Assembly: GCF_039969095.1 (NCBI RefSeq)
Contig: NZ_JBDVOL010000017.1
Location: 94,039-158,038, forward strand
Reading direction: 5' to 3'
DNA from: Reichenbachiella sp.
Lineage (GTDB): Bacteria; Bacteroidota; Bacteroidia; Cytophagales; Cyclobacteriaceae
DNA: 64,000 bases
The translations under genes were made by a program, and so were the position numbers. Under the pieces are notes generated by a model, which worked only from the letters and a program-made list of their open reading frames with translations, had not been told where the DNA came from and searched no databases. Positions 5,543-53,384 of this stretch are shown one piece after another; the first letter of the stretch is position 1, and each line of letters starts with the position of its first letter.

Positions 5543-6415
5543 TCAAAATTTTAGAATGGCCATACTTAAAATGCCTGCAATGATAATCCATTTGCAGTAG
5601 CTACTCAGATATGAAAAATGTTTTTTCGTGTCTGCCATAACTAACAAGTATAAAAAATGCATAAATGGGATGCTAAGTATTCCGAAGTAATACAGCAGAT
5701 ATTGATTCTGAACTTTGAGCAAGAAAATCACCAAACTAGCTATAAATGGAGCAATTATTGCGAACAGCATGATTTTGGTTTTTCTCATTCCAAAAACCAC
5801 TGGCAGGGTCATGCCGCCATAATTGGCATCGCCTTCTACGTCTTCAATATCTTTAATTATTTCTCTGATCAAAGTAATACCAAAGGCAAATAGGGCATAC
5901 ACCATGGTCAACAGATCTAAAGTCTGATAATATACCAAAAGCACCAATAATGTGCATGCAGTCAAAAGAGCTACTACAAAATTACCCACAAATGGAAGGC
6001 GTTTGAGTTGGTTAGAATACCACCAAAGTAAAAAGGCACAAATTAAGTTAATCACTCCAATCCAAAGCGAAACCAGTGCGCCCAGCAGAATCCCGATAGC
6101 ATTCAGGGTAGTATGAGCAATCATGACAGGGCGTCTTTTTATCGTATTGCCCACAATCACTCGATCTGGCTTATTGATCAAGTCTATTTTAATATCGTAA
6201 TAATCGTTGATGTAGTATCCGGCAGCTGCTATTATTACTGTACTTAATGCCAGAATGAAAAACCGAATGTCACCCAAAACAAACCACACTGATTTTTCAG
6301 CGTTCAGCAAGAAAAAAGCACCTGCATATTGGGTGATAAAAATAATGATCAAATTGTTGAACCGGCTCAGTTTAAGGGCATCCATGAGCAACTGAATGTG
6401 GGATCTTCTGCGCAT
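5543..6415 (-). CDS. UbiA-family aromatic/isoprenoid prenyltransferase, DGGGP-synthase-like
   Basis: About 8-9 TM segments. First Asp-rich motif YYINDYYDIKIDLIN (NDxxDxxxD) and second motif DIEDVEGD. Confidence 0.75.
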   Translation of the reverse strand: MRRRSHIQLLMDALKLSRFNNLIIIFITQYAGAFFLLNAEKSVWFVLGDIRFFILALSTVIIAAAGYYINDYYDIKIDLINKPDRVIVGNTIKRRPVMIAHTTLNAIGILLGALVSLWIGVINLICAFLLWWYSNQLKRLPFVGNFVVALLTACTLLVLLVYYQTLDLLTMVYALFAFGITLIREIIKDIEDVEGDANYGGMTLPVVFGMRKTKIMLFAIIAPFIASLVIFLLKVQNQYLLYYFGILSIPFMHFLYLLVMADTKKHFSYLSSYCKWIIIAGILSMAILKF

Positions 6416-6424
6416 GGTACAAAG

Positions 6425-7126
6425 CTACATGCTTTCCCACTTTTCCCTAAGGACAGCCAGTGTAAAAGGTTTTTTGTCTAATGCAGTGGTGTCTGTACCT
6501 ATTTCCACAGAATTTGCTTTCCACGCATCATGAAATTTTGACAATTTTAGGCTTTGTAAATTGATTCCGTTTTGCATCATATTGTATGCAATTAAGATTA
6601 AATCTTCTCGTTTGATTGAATCTCCATAAAAGATGGCATTGGAAGCAAAATCATCAAAATCATCCTCCGCTGGGCGTTCATGAATATAAAACCCCAAATT
6701 TCGCAGTTGATATACACGGTCTTTATCCTTTTCTTTCTTGTAATACCTAATTACGACATCAGTTCTGGAAATCCTACCTCTAGTATTTTCTCTTTTGGCG
6801 TAATACTCTTCTACCATATTTGAAAAGAAATCTGTATCACTAATAACCAATGGTTCCTCTGTCATTAATTCCTTTTGAAGAATGGTATCAGAGGGTACCA
6901 TGGTAGAGTCAACTTTTTGTGCCCTTGGCTCACTAATTTTTGCTACTGGCCTTTTTTTGGAGGGCCTTTTAGTATGTAGTTTTTTATTTTTCTTGTCAAT
7001 ATTTCTTATTTCAATCTGATGATAGTGCGCACCGATCAACTCAGTCAAATGAATAATAAAAATGCTGGTGAGTATAGCAAATAGATAAATTATCGGTAAA
7101 TAAGAAGAAATATTCCTCTGAGTCAT
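6425..7126 (-). CDS. Hypothetical membrane-anchored protein with a basic linker
   Basis: Single N-terminal TM (LPIIYLFAILTSIFIIHL), a Lys/Arg/Pro-rich linker (KKNKKLHTKRPSKKRPVAK) and a ~130-aa alpha/beta C-terminal domain. There is a 9-nt gap to the UbiA gene. No family recognised with confidence. Confidence 0.5.
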   Translation of the reverse strand: MTQRNISSYLPIIYLFAILTSIFIIHLTELIGAHYHQIEIRNIDKKNKKLHTKRPSKKRPVAKISEPRAQKVDSTMVPSDTILQKELMTEEPLVISDTDFFSNMVEEYYAKRENTRGRISRTDVVIRYYKKEKDKDRVYQLRNLGFYIHERPAEDDFDDFASNAIFYGDSIKREDLILIAYNMMQNGINLQSLKLSKFHDAWKANSVEIGTDTTALDKKPFTLAVLREKWESM

Positions 7127-7360
7127 TTCATGTTAGATTTATTCCTAAATATAGATTATTTAGATTAAAAATATATATAACTTCCTCATTAGCAGATAAT
7201 TCCATTTGGTGTGGATATTTGTTAAATTTAATATAATGTTTAAGAATTGCAAAATGAGGTCGAGTCGTAGAAATTTTATATTTTTGGTCGGATATAGCCA
7301 ACTTTTATACTATTTTCAAAATATATTACGAATCCTCGATTAAACCTTAATAGATCGAAC

Positions 7361-7942
7361 ATGAAAAGAATCTTTACTCTACTTACCATTTTTTCACTGA
7401 CTTACGGAGCTTTTGCTCAGGAGATGGGCACCATGACGGACCCTAGAGATGGAAAAACTTACAAAACAGCAAAATTGAAAATTGAGCTAGAAGGAGGCAT
7501 TTTCATAGAAAGAGAATGGATGGCCGAAAACTTGAATTTCGAAACTGAGGGTTCGGTATGTTATAAAAATTATCCCGCTTACTGTGAGAAATTTGGAAGA
7601 CTATATAACTGGGTTGATGCTAAATTGACTTGTCCTGAAGGCTGGCACCTTTCTACTCAACTTGAGTGGCAAGAGCTTATGCTCAATTACGGAGGATATA
7701 AAACTGCAGGAAAAGCACTAAAAGTAGGTGGCCAAAGCAATTTGAATATCTTAATGGGAGGCTTTTCAAATGTTGAAGGGCAATTTAGCGACATTGGGAA
7801 AACAGCCCATCTTTGGGATGCTGAGCTTGGCAATAAAAAGACAGCTGGTTTGATTTCATTATATGCCGACTACGATGAGATCGCCCATGATGTGATTAGC
7901 GCACGAAACATGAACAGTTGTCGATGCGTGAAGGATTACTAA
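7361..7942 (+). CDS. Secreted/lipoprotein with FISUMP (Fibrobacter succinogenes major paralogous) domain
   Basis: Signal peptide, then DPRDGKTYKTAKL, WMAENLNF, FGRLYNW and CPEGWHLSTQLEWQEL, which is the characteristic FISUMP motif order. Confidence 0.75.
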   Translation: MKRIFTLLTIFSLTYGAFAQEMGTMTDPRDGKTYKTAKLKIELEGGIFIEREWMAENLNFETEGSVCYKNYPAYCEKFGRLYNWVDAKLTCPEGWHLSTQLEWQELMLNYGGYKTAGKALKVGGQSNLNILMGGFSNVEGQFSDIGKTAHLWDAELGNKKTAGLISLYADYDEIAHDVISARNMNSCRCVKDY

Positions 7943-37936: not shown

Positions 37937-38908
37937 TTATTTTATCAACTGCGCAGCTTCTTTCGCAAAATAAGTCAGGATTACTTTAGCACCTGCTCGC
38001 TTCATACTCAATAGCATTTCCATCATAGTACTGTCATTGTCGAGCCATCCTTTTTGAGCAGCAGCTTTAATCATGGCATACTCTCCAGACACATTGTATG
38101 CTGCTATCGGCAGATCAAAATTGTCTCGAAGTAATTTAATGACATCCAAATAGGCCAAAGCCGGTTTGACCATTAGAAAGTCCGCACCTTCTTCTTCATC
38201 GAGTTCAGCTTCAATAATAGCTTCTCTTAAATTGGCTGGGTTCATTTGATAAGTCTTTTTATCTCCAGACTTTGGAGCTGAGTCTAAAGCATCCCTGAAT
38301 GGCCCATAGAATGCACTTGCATATTTTGCTGTGTAAGACATAATTGAAGTGTCCTCAAAACCATTATCATCTAAAATATCTCTGATATATTCAACTCTAC
38401 CATCCATCATATCAGAAGGACCTATGATGTCAACTCCTGTTTCAGCCTGTGCTAATGCCATTGCGCCCAGCACTTCTAATGATTCATCATTTAGAATGTT
38501 TCCATACTCATCTACAATACCATCATGACCATCCGTGCTATATGGATCCATCGCCACGTCTGTCATGATACAAGCTTCAGGAAACTTTTCTTTAATCTGT
38601 TCTAATGCCTTCAAATAAAAGAAATCAGGGTTGTGACTTTTAGTAGCCAGCTTGTCTTTATGCTTTTCTTCGACCACAGGAAAAATATCAAAAGACATTA
38701 TGCCAAGATTCATACAATCTTCAATTTCCTTAAGCATCAAGTCAATTGTAAGTCTATGAATACCAGGCATAGACTCCACCTCTACAGACTGAGACTTGCC
38801 TTCCAATAGAAACAAGGGGTACATAAAATCATGCGTGGAAAGTCTGGTTTCTTCAACCATATTTCTTATCGCAGACGTTTTTCTATTTCTTCTGGGTCGT
38901 CTTAACAT
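37937..38908 (-). CDS. hemB: Porphobilinogen synthase (delta-aminolevulinate dehydratase)
   Basis: MLRRPRRNRKTSAIRNMV is the conserved N-terminus, so the start is moved to the Met at 38908 (track ORF extends to 38956). Also MVKPALAYLDVI (Schiff-base Lys) and YNVSGEYAM. Confidence 0.93.
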   Translation of the reverse strand: MLRRPRRNRKTSAIRNMVEETRLSTHDFMYPLFLLEGKSQSVEVESMPGIHRLTIDLMLKEIEDCMNLGIMSFDIFPVVEEKHKDKLATKSHNPDFFYLKALEQIKEKFPEACIMTDVAMDPYSTDGHDGIVDEYGNILNDESLEVLGAMALAQAETGVDIIGPSDMMDGRVEYIRDILDDNGFEDTSIMSYTAKYASAFYGPFRDALDSAPKSGDKKTYQMNPANLREAIIEAELDEEEGADFLMVKPALAYLDVIKLLRDNFDLPIAAYNVSGEYAMIKAAAQKGWLDNDSTMMEMLLSMKRAGAKVILTYFAKEAAQLIK

Positions 38909-39117
38909 GAGGTTTTTTCTGCAAATGTAAAAAGATGAATGGAAATGCCTATTCAAATACCAGTCTAGTGCCGTTTATATCTTGTACAATAACGACATCT
39001 ATCCTAATAAACTACCGTTCGTGTAGCTTTTTCATACTTTTTATTGTAAATTATTCCTTTCCATAAGGGATTCTTCTGTCCCAGATTGTTAAATATTCAG
39101 ACACCGAGGCGCGAGAT

Positions 39118-40520: not shown

Positions 40521-43500
40521 ATGACCCAAAACAAAATCAATCCATATCATCCAAAAAATCACATCCGTATAGTTACCGCAGCATCGCTGTTCGATGGGCA
40601 CGACGCCGCTATCAATATCATGCGGAGAATTATCCAGTCTACGGGTGTAGAAGTGATTCATTTGGGGCATAACCGTTCAGTAAATGAAATTGTCAACTGT
40701 GCCATACAAGAAGATGCTCAGGCCATAGCGATTACTTCCTATCAAGGTGGACATGTGGAATATTTCAAATACATGTACGACCTACTCAATGAAAAAGGAA
40801 GTGGGCACATTAAAATTTTTGGTGGTGGAGGTGGAACTATCTTACCTACTGAAATAGAAGAGCTCCATCAATATGGAATCTCGAGAATTTACTCACCTGA
40901 CGATGGCCGAGCCATGGGACTTCAAGGCATGATCAATGATATGGTCAAATCAAGTGATTTTGCTATCGGAGAAAATTTAAACGGAGAATTCAAACAGGTA
41001 GATAAAAAAGATGCCAAGTCAATTGCCAGAATTATTTCAGCTGCAGAAAATTTTCCTGAACAATCTGCAGATTTACTTAAAGATATTGATAAAAAATCTG
41101 AAACTTCAACAACACCCGTTTTAGGAATAACAGGAACTGGTGGAGCTGGAAAATCTTCATTAGTGGACGAATTAGTCAGAAGGTTTTTGATTGATTTTGA
41201 GGATAAAAATATTGCCATCATCTCTGTAGATCCTTCAAAAAGGAAAACTGGCGGTGCTTTACTAGGTGATCGTATTCGCATGAATGCCATCAACAATTCG
41301 CGCGTATATATGCGCTCATTAGCGACCAGACAATCAAATCTCGCGCTATCTAAATATGTACAAGAAGCCGTGAACGTGGTGAAAACGGCAGGGTATGATT
41401 TAGTGATTTTAGAAACAAGTGGTATTGGTCAATCAGATACAGAAATTATAGAACATTCTGATCTGTCTTTGTATGTAATGACTCCTGAGTATGGAGCAGC
41501 CACTCAGTTGGAAAAAATCGACATGTTAGACTTCGCTGACATTATTGCACTGAATAAGTTTGATAAAAGAGGTGCACTAGATGCTCTTCGAGATGTTAAA
41601 AAACAATACCAAAGAAACCACCAACTCTTTGATGCCAATGTAGATGACTTGCCTGTTTTTGGTACCATTGCTTCTCAATTCAACGACCCGGGAATGAACA
41701 AGCTCTATCGGATTATCATGGATTCAATTGCTGAAAAAACTGGTGCTGATTTGAGGTCCTCATTCGAATCTTCGGAGGAGATGTCTGAGAAAATCTTTAT
41801 CATCCCACCTAAAAGAACCCGTTATCTATCTGAAATCTCCGATAGTATTCGAGAATATGATCAATGGGCAGAAAAGCAAAGGCAAATTGCCCAAAACCTA
41901 TACGGAATAGACAAGACCATGCGCTTGTCGCAGGATGAAGCGCTGAATAGTAAACTTAAAGAGCTCTACAAAGAAACTTCCCTTGATTTCGACCCTAGAA
42001 ATCAACAAATATTGGACGAATGGCAAGCCAAAGTAGACAACTACAATTCAGACGAATTTGTTTACCAAGTCAGAGGCAAAGACATCAAAGTTCAAACCAA
42101 GTCTGAGTCACTTTCTCATACCAAAATCCCAAAGGTTTCCTTACCGAAGTACGAAGGTTGGGGTGATATTTTGAAATGGAACTTGCAAGAAAACGTACCC
42201 GGTGAATTTCCATACACCGCTGGCGTATTTCCATTCAAAAGACAAGGCGAAGACCCAACTAGAATGTTTGCTGGAGAAGGTGGCCCCGAAAGAACTAACA
42301 GAAGGTTTCATTACGTATCCAAAGGACTTCCTGCAGCAAGATTATCTACAGCCTTTGATTCCGTCACACTTTATGGGGAAGACCCGGATCATAGACCTGA
42401 TATTTATGGAAAAATTGGTAATTCTGGGGTAAACATCTGCTGTTTGGATGATGCCAAGAAACTTTATTCTGGCTTCAATCTTTCAGATCCGACTACCTCA
42501 GTATCCATGACCATCAACGGTCCTGCAGCAACGATCTGCGCTTTCTTTATGAATGCCGCTATAGATCAGCAATGCGAATTGTACATCAAAGAAAATAGCC
42601 TCGAAAAAGAAATTGAGAAAAAGATAGCTGCCATCTACAAAGGCCGAGAAGACAAACGCCCAAGATATAATGGCGAATTGCCAGAAGGCAATGATGGATT
42701 AGGTTTGATGCTACTTGGCGTCACTGGCGATCAGGTACTGGACGCAGAGATCTACAATAAAATCAAAGTAGATACTTTGACCAAAGTTCGAGGAACTGTC
42801 CAAGCCGATATTCTAAAAGAAGACCAGGCACAAAACACCTGCATTTTCTCTACAGAGTTTTCATTGCGTGTGATGGGTGATGTACAGCAGTATTTCATCG
42901 ATCAGAATGTGAGAAATTTCTATTCTGTATCCATTTCGGGCTATCACATTGCTGAAGCAGGCGCTAACCCAATTACCCAATTGGCTTTAACGCTATCCAA
43001 CGGTTTCACCTTCGTGGAATATTATGTCTCGAGAGGCATGGATATCAACAAATTCGCGCCAAATCTATCTTTCTTCTTCTCGAACGGTATTGATCCAGAA
43101 TATGCGGTGATCGGTCGAGTGGCCAGAAGAATTTGGGCGAAAGCCATGAAACTAAAGTACGGAGCAGATAGTCGTTCACAAATGCTGAAGTATCACATTC
43201 AGACTAGCGGCAGATCATTGCATGCACAAGAGATCGATTTCAACGATATCCGAACCACTCTTCAAGCACTTTATGCGATTTACGACAATTGTAATTCATT
43301 GCATACCAATGCCTATGACGAAGCGATCACTACACCTACTGAGGAATCTGTAAGACGAGCGATGGCCATCCAGTTGATTATCAACAGAGAACTTGGTCTA
43401 GCCAAAAATGAAAATCCAATTCAAGGCTCATTTATCATCGAAGAACTGACTGATTTGGTGGAAGAAGCCGTACTAGATGAGTTTGACAGAATCACAGAAA

Positions 43501-43889
43501 GAGGAGGCGTATTGGGTGCGATGGAAACCATGTACCAACGAAGTAAAATTCAGGAGGAGAGCTTATACTATGAGACCTTGAAGCATACTGGCGAATTCCC
43601 AATTATTGGAGTGAACACTTTCCTTTCGTCTAAAGGCTCCCCGACTGTAATTCCACAAGAGGTTATTAGAGCTACAACTGATGAAAAAGAGTATCAGATA
43701 GAAATGTTGAACAATTTGAAAGAATTCAGTAGTAAAGAATCCGATTCTGCGTTGAAGAAACTACAGGAGACTGCCATTCACAACGAAAACATTTTCGACG
43801 CTTTAATGGAATGTGTTAAACATTGTTCTTTGGGGCAGGTTACCAATGCGCTTTTTGAAGTGGGCGGTCAGTATAGAAGGAATATGTAA
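40521..43889 (+). CDS. icmF: Fused isobutyryl-CoA mutase (B12-binding domain + MeaB-like G-protein chaperone + mutase catalytic domain)
   Basis: N-terminus [40 protein letters not shown] (B12 domain). [17 protein letters not shown] (P-loop) and NKFD. The C-terminal ~570 aa is a methylmalonyl-CoA-mutase-type TIM barrel. Total 1122 aa, and the domain order matches IcmF. Confidence 0.9.
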
Positions 43890-49270: not shown

Positions 49271-49303
49271 AAAAGTAGCAGAAATTGCTTTTCTGCTACT
49301 TTT
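49271..49303. terminator. Bidirectional terminator between DPP4 and the flavoprotein gene
   Basis: Perfect 14-bp stem AAAAGTAGCAGAAA / TTTCTGCTACTTTT with a 5-nt loop. The A/T runs give U-tracts on both strands. Confidence 0.7.
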
Positions 49304-49345: not shown

Positions 49346-50965
49346 TTACACAAGTGCCTTTTCCATATTTTCAGAATCCTTCCAATTTTTAAGAAGATCC
49401 GAACGGTTATCAGATAACAAATGTTGCTCAAAAAAATCAATCAGCGGCTGAATATGAATAGGTTGTTCGTCCCATTTATTTTCAAAGTCCTCAATGACGT
49501 GATGCTCTGCCACTTGCCTACCTTTGTAAATTTTACGAATTATGGGATGTAAAAAAGCACTCTTATTTGCATTCTTTATGTCATTCCTGTGTACCCTACT
49601 AATATTAAAGGGATTAGCCGCTTTTTCAAATATTTCATTACCATACTCCAATGTAATTGTATAATACTCATCCAAATTTGGACGGGCTTGCTTATGAAGA
49701 TAGTCCACTGGAATAGACTTAAGGTACTTGGCTTCACCACCATCTATTAAAATGGCATCACAAATGAATCCAAATTGTTGCCACAGTGCTGAGGTTCTAT
49801 TTATATTTTGAATTATCAAATTGGTCATTTCCTTGGACTCAGCCTTCACGTTTGAATATGGCCAATCCTTTCCCTTTATTTTCTTGTGAAGAATATGAAA
49901 GAGACATTCACAGTTGTATCTGAAACCATGAACAAAACCGGAAGTGGATTTTTTAAAATCCCTCATTTGGGTAATCGTTCCCGCAAAATACAGACCTTTC
50001 ACATTTACAGATTCCCACTTCTCATTCTGATCAGGAAACCTATCGTCAATTGTTAATTGTGGTTTTACTTGATCATCAAATATGGAAGCGTCAAACTTAA
50101 AGCCAGTGCACGCTATAATAGCGTCATAAATTAATTGTTCAACTTCTCCATCCGCATTACCATATTTAATCGTAGCAGCCAATGTGCCATCTTGTAATTT
50201 TTCAATCAAGTCAATATTCCCATCTATCAAAGCGTTCTGTGATTTTAGCTGATAGGTATCTAAAAAATTATTATTTACTGCTCTAACATGACCAACAAAG
50301 TGGGTTTTCCACGCCATTTTAACCGTATTGGGGCTGCAGACATGGATTTTTGACGCACTTGCTATTAGATGATCTGCCGTCTCCAATGCTGAGTTGCCTT
50401 TTCCCAAAATCAGTACTCTTTTGTTTTCGAATTCTTTTGTATCAACTGAACACTCAGTATATGGCACTACATGTTCAATACCATTAATCTCTGGTAAATA
50501 AGGCAAAGATGTACCTGTAGCCACTACTACGTTAGGACAAGTATACTTTTTGCCATTTCCCAAGTCGATACGAAACTCGTCATCGACCTTAGATATTTGC
50601 TCAACATTAGAGTTGAACTCGACCTTCAGGCTAAATTTTTTTCTGAAATTATCGAGGTACTCAACAAAAGCATCTGCATCGGGAAAATATTCTTTGGTTA
50701 GGTCTTTGAACAACGGTTCATACTCTTCACTCAAGAGAGAATTCCAATCAAAACGCATATTAATTTCCTTGTCTTCAAAACCGGTATGCACCTTGTTTAT
50801 CGAAATTAACTTACGGTGACGTGGAAATTGCCTAAAAAAAGCACCCGCCTCTTCAGCTTTCTCAAGTATAACATAGTCTATACTGTATTTTTCAAAAAAA
50901 TAACCGAGCTGAAGTCCAGCCGGACCAGCACCAATTACAACGACTTCTTTTTTAACTGAATTCAT
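49346..50965 (-). CDS. Two-dinucleotide-binding-domain flavoprotein (FAD + NAD(P)H; monooxygenase/TrxR-like) with a ~170-aa C-terminal extension
   Basis: VVVIGAGPAGLQLG (FAD GxGxxG), VVVATGT, RVLILGKGNSALETADHL (second Rossmann) and GLYFAGT. There is no WxWxIP halogenase motif and no FxGxxxHxxxY/W FMO/BVMO fingerprint. Confidence 0.75.
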   Translation of the reverse strand: MNSVKKEVVVIGAGPAGLQLGYFFEKYSIDYVILEKAEEAGAFFRQFPRHRKLISINKVHTGFEDKEINMRFDWNSLLSEEYEPLFKDLTKEYFPDADAFVEYLDNFRKKFSLKVEFNSNVEQISKVDDEFRIDLGNGKKYTCPNVVVATGTSLPYLPEINGIEHVVPYTECSVDTKEFENKRVLILGKGNSALETADHLIASASKIHVCSPNTVKMAWKTHFVGHVRAVNNNFLDTYQLKSQNALIDGNIDLIEKLQDGTLAATIKYGNADGEVEQLIYDAIIACTGFKFDASIFDDQVKPQLTIDDRFPDQNEKWESVNVKGLYFAGTITQMRDFKKSTSGFVHGFRYNCECLFHILHKKIKGKDWPYSNVKAESKEMTNLIIQNINRTSALWQQFGFICDAILIDGGEAKYLKSIPVDYLHKQARPNLDEYYTITLEYGNEIFEKAANPFNISRVHRNDIKNANKSAFLHPIIRKIYKGRQVAEHHVIEDFENKWDEQPIHIQPLIDFFEQHLLSDNRSDLLKNWKDSENMEKALV

Positions 50966-51066
50966 GTAGTTTAATATTTAATTACCAGGTTTATTAAAGT
51001 AACTTTTCTCACGACACTGCCAATTGTAAACTGGGACATGCTCGTCCGGCTTTTTTCGCATTATAA

Positions 51067-51465
51067 CTACTTCAAAAGCCAGTCTTCGCAATCTTTTACT
51101 GTGTTAAAATTCTCAATTGTAAGATTTCCTAGTTGCACCCGACTATTAATATCATCTACACTAGACCTCGCATAAATATTAGTCGAAACCAATGCTGATA
51201 CCTTTCTCAATCCAACTTTCTCAACTGCAGGAAACCATTCCTTGGTCAAATAATCCTTTAATTCCTCCGTGACCACTTTCAAATCAAGATGGTCGCTCAA
51301 GTGAAGTTTCACACCATTCTCTTTGATGTATTTTGTCATAAATTCACTACCCTCCTTAGCCTGATTCAATTGAATAAATCCCGACCATTTGGTATACAGG
51401 ATTCCACTTGAATTGTCCATTTCAATTTTGCAAAACTTCTTGTCGAATATTAAATTCTTCCCCAT
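51067..51465 (-). CDS. Small protein paralogous to the N-terminal domain of the adjacent PrnB-like protein
   Basis: From the Met at 51465 (MGKNLIFDKKFCKIEM...). By hand it aligns ungapped to residues ~6-106 of the 51536..53062 product, with 38 identities in 101 positions. Shared blocks include EFM, IKEN.VK.H.S, L.LKV, YL...WFP.VEK.GL and LVS. Confidence 0.6.
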   Translation of the reverse strand: MGKNLIFDKKFCKIEMDNSSGILYTKWSGFIQLNQAKEGSEFMTKYIKENGVKLHLSDHLDLKVVTEELKDYLTKEWFPAVEKVGLRKVSALVSTNIYARSSVDDINSRVQLGNLTIENFNTVKDCEDWLLK

Positions 51466-51535
51466 TTTTAAAATAATTTGATTAATTAATTGTGACAAAT
51501 AATGTTGCGGATAGGTTTGGTTTATTAATATTTTG

Positions 51536-53062
51536 TCAATTCGTCTCCTTGATTTGAGTCAGTTTGTTTATAGAACTACTTAGCGAATCAATCCGTTGAC
51601 TATTGGCTTCAAGAATAAATTGAAGAATATCTGTAGAATAGCCTCCACTACCTTTGTCTTGCCCAGTTTCTTCTTGATATTTGTATGACTCTTCTGCCAA
51701 TTTTTTATGTGGCATCCTGAAGCTCTTTTGCATATTGCACAGCTTAAGAAGTGCCTGAGATGAGGCTACCACCTGATCGTTTGGTTTTTCTTCAAGCATA
51801 CGGATAGCCACATCCACCAGACTCTCTTTTCCTGAATAGAAGTCATAAATATCACGCATAAAGGACAAATTGAATGGAAGGTATTTGGTTTTAAATTCCA
51901 CATACTCTTCGTTCATAATTTGAGAACTCCAAAGCAGATGATCATAAACAAACATAGGTAGCTCCACCGCGCCTGGACCGATAAGTTCTTCATTGTTGAA
52001 TACTATTGGGTCATAGTAAAACCTAAGCTCTCTTGCAAAGAATTCTGGTGAAACTGTTCTATGCGCAAAAACTATAGCCTGAATAACGTGCTTAAAGTCA
52101 GCACCTGCTTTTTCACAAAGTTCTTCATAATATGGAGAATCTATTGGTGTATGATGCAACTTGATAAGGTGGTCAATTGCACCTTCCATTGCAGGAAATG
52201 ATTCTGTCACGCTATGCATTAAATCAAGCTCATCTTTTACTGAGGTGTACCTTCTTTTTCGATGACCATCTGGATTCCAAACGGTATAGTGAAGTAAGGT
52301 ATCTCTTGGAGGAAGGTTTGTTTTACGACTTAATTCGTCTAATACATATTCCAAATGCGGTATGGCTTCAATTGGCTCTATATCATGTCTTTTGATAGAA
52401 CCTAGAAAAATTCCAATGTCTCTCATTGAAGCCAGAGATGTATAGAAGTCAAACCCATCCAATTGCTCCGGAGTTGGAAGTTTACGACTCAGTAGACTTA
52501 CCAACCCATCAGCATCTCCATCAGCATTTAATTTCGGAATTAGGCTAACATATTCGTCAATACCAAGCGGATCCAGTTTTTTTACTTCTTCCTCCACCTT
52601 TAGCATTTGAAAGGCCGAGATTTTGTTGACTAGTTGCTGTGTCTCATCAATTGGCGAACGACTTACCTTCAACCAGTTCAAACATTCCTTTTCTAATCCA
52701 AAGGTGAAAATTTCAAGATCTCCATTCCCAAGATAGCTTTTATTCACCTTATTCATTGCAGCCTTAACATAGGGATCAAAAGAGACAAGCACAGCAATTC
52801 TTTCAAGACCTAATTTTTCAACATTGGGGAACCAGTCTGAATTTAGATACTCTCCAACCTCTTTACTTAATACCTTTAGATTTAGTTGATTACTATAGTG
52901 ATGCTTGACATTATTCTCTTTAATGAAGCTGCTCATAAATTCGCAACTTTCTCTTACATGTCTCACTTTTGGAAAACCTTGCCAGTTGGCGCCTATGGCA
53001 TTTAGCTCCGAGTCGTACCAAATGTGGCACCACTCATCTTTCATTAGATCAGTTTGTTTCAT
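51536..53062 (-). CDS. PrnB-like haem enzyme (monodechloroaminopyrrolnitrin-synthase family, IDO/TDO superfamily) fused to an uncharacterised N-terminal ~135-aa domain
   Basis: Residues ~150-508 contain SMRDIGIFLGSIKRH, TNLPPRDTLLHYTVWNP, GPGAVELPMFVYDHLLW, FRMPHKKLAEESY and KGSGGYS. I recall these as the conserved blocks of Pseudomonas PrnB, including the proximal His followed by GSGG. This recognition is from memory, not from a search. Confidence 0.7.
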   Translation of the reverse strand: MKQTDLMKDEWCHIWYDSELNAIGANWQGFPKVRHVRESCEFMSSFIKENNVKHHYSNQLNLKVLSKEVGEYLNSDWFPNVEKLGLERIAVLVSFDPYVKAAMNKVNKSYLGNGDLEIFTFGLEKECLNWLKVSRSPIDETQQLVNKISAFQMLKVEEEVKKLDPLGIDEYVSLIPKLNADGDADGLVSLLSRKLPTPEQLDGFDFYTSLASMRDIGIFLGSIKRHDIEPIEAIPHLEYVLDELSRKTNLPPRDTLLHYTVWNPDGHRKRRYTSVKDELDLMHSVTESFPAMEGAIDHLIKLHHTPIDSPYYEELCEKAGADFKHVIQAIVFAHRTVSPEFFARELRFYYDPIVFNNEELIGPGAVELPMFVYDHLLWSSQIMNEEYVEFKTKYLPFNLSFMRDIYDFYSGKESLVDVAIRMLEEKPNDQVVASSQALLKLCNMQKSFRMPHKKLAEESYKYQEETGQDKGSGGYSTDILQFILEANSQRIDSLSSSINKLTQIKETN

Positions 53063-53335
53063 GGTTAGGTTTTACTGGTTGTCATTTAAAAGCTGATGCA
53101 GTAAACTATATAGTCTTCAAAATTTTCACAACTTATAAAAGTTATTTTACCCGTTATAATTTCAAAATACCGTCAGCTACCTACTTTACCCATAAGATTT
53201 TCACCTAACCATCTAGGTACATATGCCTAATACCTATACCTGTAAATTATTTTTTGTCTGTTTTATCAAATTCAATAATTGAAGACAAGAAACAAGTAAG
53301 ATCAGCACCATTAAATTAAAATCTAGGATAAAAAA

Positions 53336-53361
53336 AGCTCCCCAATCCTAATTGGGGAGCT
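53336..53361 (-). terminator. Rho-independent terminator of the amylase gene
   Basis: 11-bp stem AGCTCCCCAAT / ATTGGGGAGCT with a 4-nt loop. On the minus strand it is followed by a T7 run, 23 nt after the amylase stop. Confidence 0.75.
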
Positions 53362-53384
53362 CACCTTTTTGAAACTAATAGCTT

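Follow-up and report, generated by a model that had tools for sequence, protein, structure and literature searches.

What does a PrnB-like haem protein do at a locus that carries no pyrrolnitrin genes? The question arises from a 64-kb stretch of DNA (hereafter, the window) from a metagenome-assembled genome of Reichenbachiella sp., a marine member of the Cytophagales. Three co-directional genes on the minus strand of the window encode a 508-residue protein with a PrnB-like C-terminal part (51536..53062), a 143-residue protein (51067..51498, counted from the first TTG) and a 539-residue flavoprotein (49346..50965). The PrnB reaction, in which an indole ring is opened, re-closed to a pyrrole and decarboxylated, is among the most unusual of those that depend on haem. 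The initial annotation, which had placed all three open reading frames (ORFs) correctly, took them to form a tryptophan-rearranging three-gene unit. We find instead that the PrnB family splits into two non-overlapping genomic contexts, prnABCD clusters and loci linked to a small STAS protein, and that the conserved unit very likely consists of two genes, those for the STAS and the PrnB-like proteins, and not of three.

Membership of the 508-residue protein in the PrnB family is virtually certain. The peptide blocks on which the family had been called (SMRDIGIFLGSIKRH, TNLPPRDTLLHYTVWNP, GPGAVELPMFVYDHLLW, and FRMPHKKLAEESY together with KGSGGYS) are all found in the translation, and the profile match expected from them was obtained: PF08933 PrnB, the Pfam family still named DUF1864 in some sources, matches residues 204-492 (E=8.8e-49; 166.7 bits, compared with a cut-off of 27). 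The protein also matches PDB entries 2v7i (P. fluorescens PrnB, hereafter PfPrnB; residues 159-484, E=4.3e-73) and 9dfg (Flavobacteriales PrnB, hereafter FbPrnB; E=1.4e-46). Three parts are distinguished: a STAS-fold domain (residues ~1-127), a disordered linker (128-138) and the PrnB-family haem domain (~150-508). An AlphaFold model was built from 24 homologues (mean predicted local distance difference test score, pLDDT, 83.5). Superposed by Foldseek, its C-terminal domain fits all PrnB crystal structures with template modelling (TM) scores of 0.89-0.92 and root-mean-square deviations (rmsd) of 2.0-2.6 Å, as exemplified by 2x67 (E=3.8e-19, TM 0.91, rmsd 2.6 Å) and 9dfl (TM 0.92, rmsd 2.0 Å). 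The next matches, SO4414 and IDO1/2, are far poorer (TM 0.55-0.68). The C-terminal 360 residues are thus a PrnB/IDO-fold domain that retains the proximal histidine, as well as the loops by which crystallised PrnBs bind the amino-acid group of the substrate.

The landmarks of the haem domain are His452, the GPGAVE (362-367) and GSGGY (471-475) motifs, and the pocket residue Tyr259. Counted along the 2v7i alignment, His452, the histidine of FRMPH that had been proposed as the proximal ligand, corresponds to residue 313 of PfPrnB, which we take to be the proximal haem ligand of that enzyme. His452 is invariant in the homologues (24/24) and in a wider alignment (49/49 sequences). Ser472 of GSGGY is aligned with Ser319 of FbPrnB, and the GPGAVE loop with Gly210/Gly211; in FbPrnB crystals, the backbone of the two glycines and the Ser319 loop hold the carboxylate of the substrate (PMC11791213). 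Tyr259 is aligned with Val117 of PfPrnB and Tyr104 of FbPrnB, and replacement of valine by tyrosine at this position of PrnB narrows the indole pocket (PMC11791213).

FbPrnB (MCB9204939, from a Flavobacteriales bacterium; PDB 9DFG/9DFI) is the only characterised PrnB homologue from Bacteroidota, and binds L-Trp and 7-Cl-Trp through ligation of the amine to the haem (PMC11791213). It has the pocket tyrosine and the serine in common with the window protein. However, it is a 370-aa single-domain protein, whereas the window protein has two domains, and the two are only 28-29% identical. The claim of novelty is accordingly to be divided. No pathway of this composition is described in the literature that was searched, but novelty within Bacteroidota had been overstated, as dozens of PrnB homologues are annotated in Cytophagales and crystal structures (9DFG and others) are available for the Flavobacteriales homologue (PMC11791213).

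The second component of the pair is the small protein. Its resemblance to the extra N-terminal domain of the fusion protein, which had been noticed earlier, is borne out by BLASTP: the N-terminal ~130 residues are 39% identical to the product of the 143-aa ORF over 122 aa (E=6e-33). What the initial annotation missed is the STAS/SpoIIAA fold of the small domain and the signalling family to which it belongs, and with these the plausible functions shift. The STAS hidden Markov model (HMM) matches residues 1-132 of the fusion (E=6.7e-40), and the model shows a beta-alpha pattern in this region, the STAS-like part of which is encoded by 52682..53062 on the minus strand. The 143-aa protein has no sequence match in Pfam (E<=1), NCBIfam or PDB. 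Nevertheless, a model of the free protein (13 homologues, pLDDT 89.8) retrieves SpoIIAA, DUF3478 proteins, a Dyadobacter STAS protein, RsbS, SiaC and YtvA as top Foldseek matches. Matches to 1tid_B (SpoIIAA, TM 0.71), 2ook/2q3l (DUF3478), 4xs5 (STAS) and RsbS all have a probability of 1.0. The translation may be too long at its start. Homologues are ~132 aa long (~131-133), and their alignment begins at Met12; the first 11 residues of the model have a pLDDT below 50. Translation therefore probably starts from the ATG codon of residue 12 (about 51465), which would leave ~70 nt between the free STAS gene and the fusion gene.

The genomic contexts of the family were defined by surveying more than 70 loci, obtained by exact-sequence look-ups of relatives, from one genome-scan match and from 62 metagenome loci, and sorted by HMMs and motif scans. 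In class A (26 loci), a 361-aa PrnB is encoded between ORFs of ~538 aa and ~567 aa carrying the WxWxIP halogenase motif, followed by a ~363-aa Rieske ORF. Class A is prnABCD. The small STAS protein is present in none of these loci (0/26). Class S comprises 23 non-redundant loci, including the window, and in all of them a homologue of the small protein is encoded upstream of the PrnB-like gene or fused to it (23/23), so that the expected co-occurrence in related genomes holds for the small protein; neither halogenase nor Rieske ORFs occur (0/23). In unfused class-S loci, the STAS gene precedes a PrnB-like gene of 364-378 codons, at a distance ranging from 7 bp to some tens of bp. Beyond the local synteny of close relatives, class S has no third conserved neighbour. 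Fused forms make up one subclade, and the STAS-PrnB fusion therefore arose once. We found no description of the STAS pairing, of the STAS-PrnB fusion or of the class-S clade in the searchable literature.

Sequence comparisons set the two classes apart. Identity is 35-44% between classes, and averages 52% within class S and 88% within class A. Sixty-one positions, including GPGAVE and GSGGY, are invariant in both classes, whereas ten differences are class-fixed (S/A): D169/R, D254/E, Y259/V, R268/A, V337/I, A343/Y, D351/E, L376/V, S379/G and K446/L. Class S forms a deep clade, mostly of Cytophagales, in a distance tree, where 48 of 60 bootstraps recover it as monophyletic. Its sister branch contains class A, two further divergent loci and FbPrnB, which thus groups with prn-type PrnB and not with class S; FbPrnB is at most 37% identical to any of the surveyed loci.

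Compared with prnABCD PrnB of Pseudomonas and Burkholderia (PDB 2V7I), the window protein belongs to the same Pfam family, is similar in predicted structure (TM ~0.9), and has the equivalent histidine and the two conserved motifs; the ligand is likely to be tryptophan in this case also. The two nevertheless fall into separate clades. Class-S genes have neither prnA, prnC, prnD nor a halogenase beside them, and the pocket residue, Val117 in PfPrnB and invariantly valine in class A, is invariantly tyrosine in class S. In addition, prn clusters are entirely devoid of a STAS partner, which class S always has, the window featuring both a fused and a free copy. Context, clade and the replacement of valine by Tyr259 speak against the fusion protein being the PrnB of a pyrrolnitrin pathway.

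The fixed differences also bear on whether class-S proteins catalyse another reaction, such as an IDO/TDO-like dioxygenation or a MarE-like mono-oxygenation of tryptophan or of another indole or aromatic amino acid, in catabolism or detoxification. Low identity to prn-type PrnB and the fixed differences around the pocket (Tyr259, Ala343, Ser379, Arg268 and Lys446) would agree with such a change. So would the housekeeping-like genomic context and the fact that members of the superfamily reach diverse outcomes on one substrate (PMC11791213, PMC12921851). On the other hand, PrnB-specific motifs are retained, the structural similarity is to PrnB (TM 0.9) and not to IDO or SO4414 (0.55-0.68), and no kynurenine-pathway genes are found near the trio. 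We regard a change to such chemistry as decidedly improbable.

Not all PrnB homologues fall into the two classes. Divergent lineages (30-39% identity) at L039 (5935-7065), L061 (5947-7065), L070 and L071 have neither STAS nor prnACD neighbours, and the family hence has at least one or two further contexts. Within class S, the surroundings of the fusion vary. In R. versicolor (L003; fusion at 5943-7646) and in a related metagenome contig (L006; 5544-7604), the fusion gene, on the minus strand, is divergent from a chemoreceptor-like HAMP-MCPsignal gene and adjoins a cbb3 oxidase operon (FixNOP/FixG/FixH/FixS), several Usp genes and a PAS histidine kinase gene. The surroundings of these two fusions are oxygen- or redox-themed.

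The role of the STAS partner may be sought in the family from which it derives. An exhaustive profile search of the small-protein family yielded 1,282 cluster representatives, most of ~130 aa. Free members show weak matches to Pfam SpoIIAA-like (PF11964) and DUF7793; PF11964 matches are confined to homologues of the window protein and are weak (P0289, P0266 and P0306, 8e-6 to 1.6e-12; P0253, the closest homologue, 0.0036). The six long members (P0310, P0381, P0387, P0389, P0400 and P0401) are all PAS/GAF-HisKA-HATPase_c sensor kinases ending in this domain (6/6), and the family is therefore of the signalling type. In these kinases, the SpoIIAA-like/DUF7793 STAS domain occupies the usual place of the receiver domain, as in a hybrid kinase; we know of no characterisation of kinases with this architecture.

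PrnB-linked members form a subfamily with a signature of their own, H-L-S-D-H, on strand 3 (H66 to H70 in the free copy of the window). The signature is invariant in upstream copies (20/20) and in six of seven downstream free copies, and has degenerated in every one of the seven fused N-terminal domains, reading HYSNQ in that of the window. Only the ~35 closest representatives carry it; of its residues, the remaining family retains the aspartate alone. Loss of the signature from the fused copy, with an intact free copy adjoining, offers a simple account of the fusion-plus-paralogue layout. STAS paralogues also come in pairs elsewhere. In the unfused loci L022 (5100-5522 on the minus and 5932-6402 on the plus strand) and L029 (5974-6384 and 7739-8209), two paralogues lie around the PrnB-like gene, and in each locus the signature of one copy is degenerate. 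The partner has thus been duplicated outside the fusion lineage also.

SpoIIAA, RsbV, RsbS, SiaC and the PF11964 and DUF7793 proteins have in common with the window protein a predicted fold of four or five strands plus helices (probability 1.0, TM 0.6-0.7) and the generic strand-3 aspartate. The window protein differs from them in its signature and in having a haem enzyme, not an anti-sigma factor, as its partner. The position of the SpoIIAA phospho-serine (77) is occupied by serine in 17 of 20 upstream copies, and by Thr, Asn or Met in downstream copies. The conserved neighbours in class-S loci include no HATPase_c anti-sigma kinase, no PP2C phosphatase and no sigma factor. Classical phospho-serine partner switching was rejected because Ser/Thr is not conserved at the phospho-site and no kinase or phosphatase is linked. 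For the same reasons, a role as an anti-sigma-factor antagonist is not supported.

A signalling-type partner raises the main rival explanation, that the protein is a sensor and not an enzyme. The IDO-fold haem domain would sense O2, NO, redox state or free tryptophan, and the STAS domain would relay the signal to a partner-switching or kinase pathway. The pair would then resemble, by analogy, the globin-STAS protein RsbR of stressosomes or the LOV-STAS protein YtvA. To our knowledge, no IDO-fold sensor has been described; if true, this would be the first haem sensor with the fold, which would be extended to signal transduction. The explanation suits a partner whose closest structures are anti-sigma antagonists, RsbS, SiaC and YtvA, and whose wider family supplies the C-terminal domain of PAS/GAF histidine kinases. 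It also suits a self-contained module found outside biosynthetic clusters in varied contexts, among them the HAMP-MCPsignal, cbb3 oxidase and Usp genes near the L003 and L006 fusions. Moreover, the amine of the PrnB substrate ligates the haem and gives a complex that is inert in vitro, as a ligand sensor might (PMC11791213). Nevertheless, conserved neighbours include none of the anti-sigma kinases, phosphatases or sigma factors named above, and the phospho-serine is not kept in downstream free copies. The 61 invariant residues are those of catalytic PrnBs, although a sensor would also keep ligand-binding residues. Known sensor-STAS fusions, such as the haem-globin RsbR of the Vibrio stressosome and YtvA, likewise join a cofactor domain and a STAS domain in one polypeptide, and stressosome proteins and YtvA are among the structural matches of the free STAS model. 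However, the window protein has the domains in reverse order, with STAS at the N-terminus, and its cofactor domain is of the IDO/PrnB fold and keeps an intact substrate site; nor do any RsbS/RsbT stressosome genes adjoin the fusion. We consider a sensor rather unlikely.

The explanation that we favour is a STAS-coupled PrnB-family haem enzyme acting on unhalogenated L-tryptophan, although, taken as a whole package, it stands at about even chances of being right. The haem domain would bind L-tryptophan by amine-to-iron ligation, as FbPrnB and PfPrnB do. Unhalogenated L-Trp is the presumed substrate because PrnB accepts it and because FbPrnB, which has the same pocket tyrosine, binds it (PMC11791213). 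With reduced haem and O2, the ring would then be oxidatively rearranged in the manner of PrnB and the molecule decarboxylated, the product being of the aminophenylpyrrole type. The STAS protein would form a complex with the enzyme and gate or activate it. It could also couple the enzyme to kinase-based signalling, since PAS/GAF histidine kinases carry domains of the wider STAS family. The fusion of the STAS gene to that of the enzyme took place in the Reichenbachiella lineage; the fused copy lost its signature, and an intact free copy lies directly downstream. In the sub-lineage of the window, the flavoprotein might oxygenate the product or the substrate, because its orthologues are tailoring-type genes in non-ribosomal peptide synthetase (NRPS) clusters, or might supply NAD(P)H-derived electrons to the haem.

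Several observations weigh against this explanation. The catalytic activity of class-S members is predicted from homology at 35-44% identity, and canonical PrnB itself has never shown activity in pure form (PMC11791213). The ten class-fixed positions, including Tyr259 in place of Val117, Arg268 and Lys446, imply that the substrate or the reaction could differ. Three short contigs nested in class S (L027, L028 and L030) carry no STAS gene in the available sequence. The locus lies outside any biosynthetic cluster, and the MCP-like, cbb3 oxidase and Usp neighbours of some relatives fit sensing as well as catalysis. Finally, the role given to the flavoprotein is speculative.

Class S is a large, old sister clade of PrnB with an obligatory signalling-fold partner, either translationally coupled or fused. 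Recent work on PrnB concluded that the assays in vitro lack some cellular component, which may be a partner protein (PMC11791213). The STAS protein might be a dedicated activator, a partner of the kind whose absence has kept PrnB from being reconstituted in vitro over three decades. The inactivity of pure PrnB, the proposal of a missing partner and the hard-wired partner of class S together provide a concrete experimental lead. Class S could show whether a protein partner switches on PrnB-type chemistry. The system should be tractable, because FbPrnB, a related homologue from Bacteroidota, is expressed in soluble form in E. coli. As class S has no halogenase, its substrate should be a plain metabolite, and its study could reveal phenylpyrrole-like or other tryptophan-derived compounds of marine and soil Cytophagales.

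Whether the flavoprotein belongs to the unit was decided by its distribution. Together with the pair, it is found only in the window and in two relatives, L002 (83% identity) and L007/8 (81%). L005, a 72% relative that is syntenic with the window on both sides, lacks it, as do L003, L004 and L006 (51-57%), the unfused loci and all 62 metagenome loci. The pattern of presence on the tree implies a single gain, and the flavoprotein therefore joined the pair once, in the ancestor of the subclade formed by the window, L002 and L007. For this reason, the proposal that all three genes co-occur in related genomes does not hold. The trio is adjacent although the block formed by YjbQ, HTH_18 and 776-aa genes lies on opposite sides in the window and in L002/L007; adjacency across this rearrangement speaks weakly for linkage.

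An integral three-gene tryptophan-rearranging pathway, with the flavoprotein as the obligatory partner of the PrnB-like enzyme, would explain why the genes are co-directional, separated by gaps of 37 and 101 nt, flanked but not interrupted by terminators, and kept together in three genomes despite the flanking rearrangement. It could also accommodate the tailoring-type orthologues in NRPS clusters and the need of PrnB for some cellular factor, possibly a redox partner (PMC11791213). Such a pathway is quite improbable, given that the flavoprotein is missing from the syntenic L005, from four other lineages with fused or unfused pairs and from all metagenome loci, and that its family counts >4,500 members across many phyla, compared with about 234 for PrnB. 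Furthermore, part of the spacer upstream of the flavoprotein gene may be a separate promoter. This 101-nt spacer (50966..51066) contains no terminator-like hairpin. Its 3' ~45 nt, immediately upstream of the flavoprotein start (50966-51010, minus strand; GTGAGAAAAxTTAxTTTAATAAAxCxGGTAxTTAAA), are near-identical in the window, L002 and L007, while the other part has diverged. As judged from this conservation, the element may be a separate promoter or part of a 5' untranslated region.

The initial description of the flavoprotein as a two-Rossmann protein, of the NAD(P)H/FAD type, was right. Pyr_redox_3 matches residues 9-329 (E=1e-50), profile positions 1-305 being aligned contiguously, and GAGPAG (12-17) and GKGNSA (188-193) motifs are present. 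The C-terminal ~200 aa match nothing characterised. The family (~520 aa) includes proteins of ~50% identity in Flavobacteriia, Cyanobacteria, Acidobacteriota and Chloroflexota, and no member has been characterised. Some members are ~830-910 aa fusions with an extra region. The nearest solved relatives, small class-B/TrxR-like flavoproteins such as SMFMO (4A9W), 4USQ, YpdA/Bdr (7A7B) and ferredoxin-NADP reductases of the TrxR type, match residues 1-335 (E=1e-15 to 4e-18). The similarity is remote, and the window flavoprotein differs from them in its extra, conserved C-terminal region and in having no CxxC. Cys286 is the sole invariant cysteine, and without a redox-active CxxC a disulfide reductase of the thioredoxin-reductase type was ruled out.

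A single-component halogenase of the AetF/Bmp5 type would have restored the logic of PrnA plus PrnB and overturned the statement that the locus has no halogenase. Such enzymes are group-B2 flavin-containing monooxygenases with a large insertion in the NADP domain that carries a catalytic lysine (PMC10306068). The window flavoprotein appears from its sequence to lack this insertion, and AetF is outside its top 60 PDB profile matches; this identity was rejected on these sequence and profile grounds. Among the Bacteroidota orthologues that were sampled (56-61% identity; among L075, L076/L077, L078 and L079), all three are encoded in NRPS clusters. Two of the three clusters look like those for siderophores: their genes include those for a TonB receptor, an ABC exporter and a CmlA-like hydroxylase, besides a PALP plus OCD pair. 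The cyanobacterial orthologue adjoins another flavin-containing monooxygenase. The family is hence an NRPS-associated enzyme of interest in its own right, without an assigned role.

Terminator-like hairpins bracket the trio as had been proposed. The 5' boundary of the unit is marked by a hairpin with a 12-bp stem followed by a T run (53335..53362, minus strand), at which the upstream 776-aa gene ends, and the 3' boundary by one with a 14-bp stem (49271..49303, minus strand), 43 nt past the stop codon of the flavoprotein gene. No terminator-like hairpin is found between the three genes, which are separated by 37 nt (fusion gene and free STAS gene) and 101 nt (free STAS and flavoprotein genes). 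A Rfam search of the unit yielded no match at E<=0.1, the TAnnTTTG promoter motif typical of Bacteroidota is absent from both intergenic spacers, and a sigma-70 promoter scan of the unit performed no better than on shuffled sequences. An anti-phage defence module was ruled out by the lack of PADLOC matches.

The view that the context is not that of pyrrolnitrin synthesis extends to the entire window, where neither the WxWxIP halogenase motif nor the Rieske CxH...CxxH motif occurs in any ORF of >=150 aa. The neighbours of the trio are housekeeping genes, encoding ALAD, an IcmF-like mutase, peptidases, LysR and EamA proteins, DPP-IV, a secreted 776-aa protein and Pol I. The ALAD (hemB) gene (37937-38956) lies ~12 kb from the gene for the haem protein, and neither it nor the gene for the mutase has an evident link to the trio. 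The IcmF-like protein (40521-43889) is a fusion of 1,122 aa, in which B12-binding, MeaB GTPase and methylmalonyl-CoA-mutase parts are combined.

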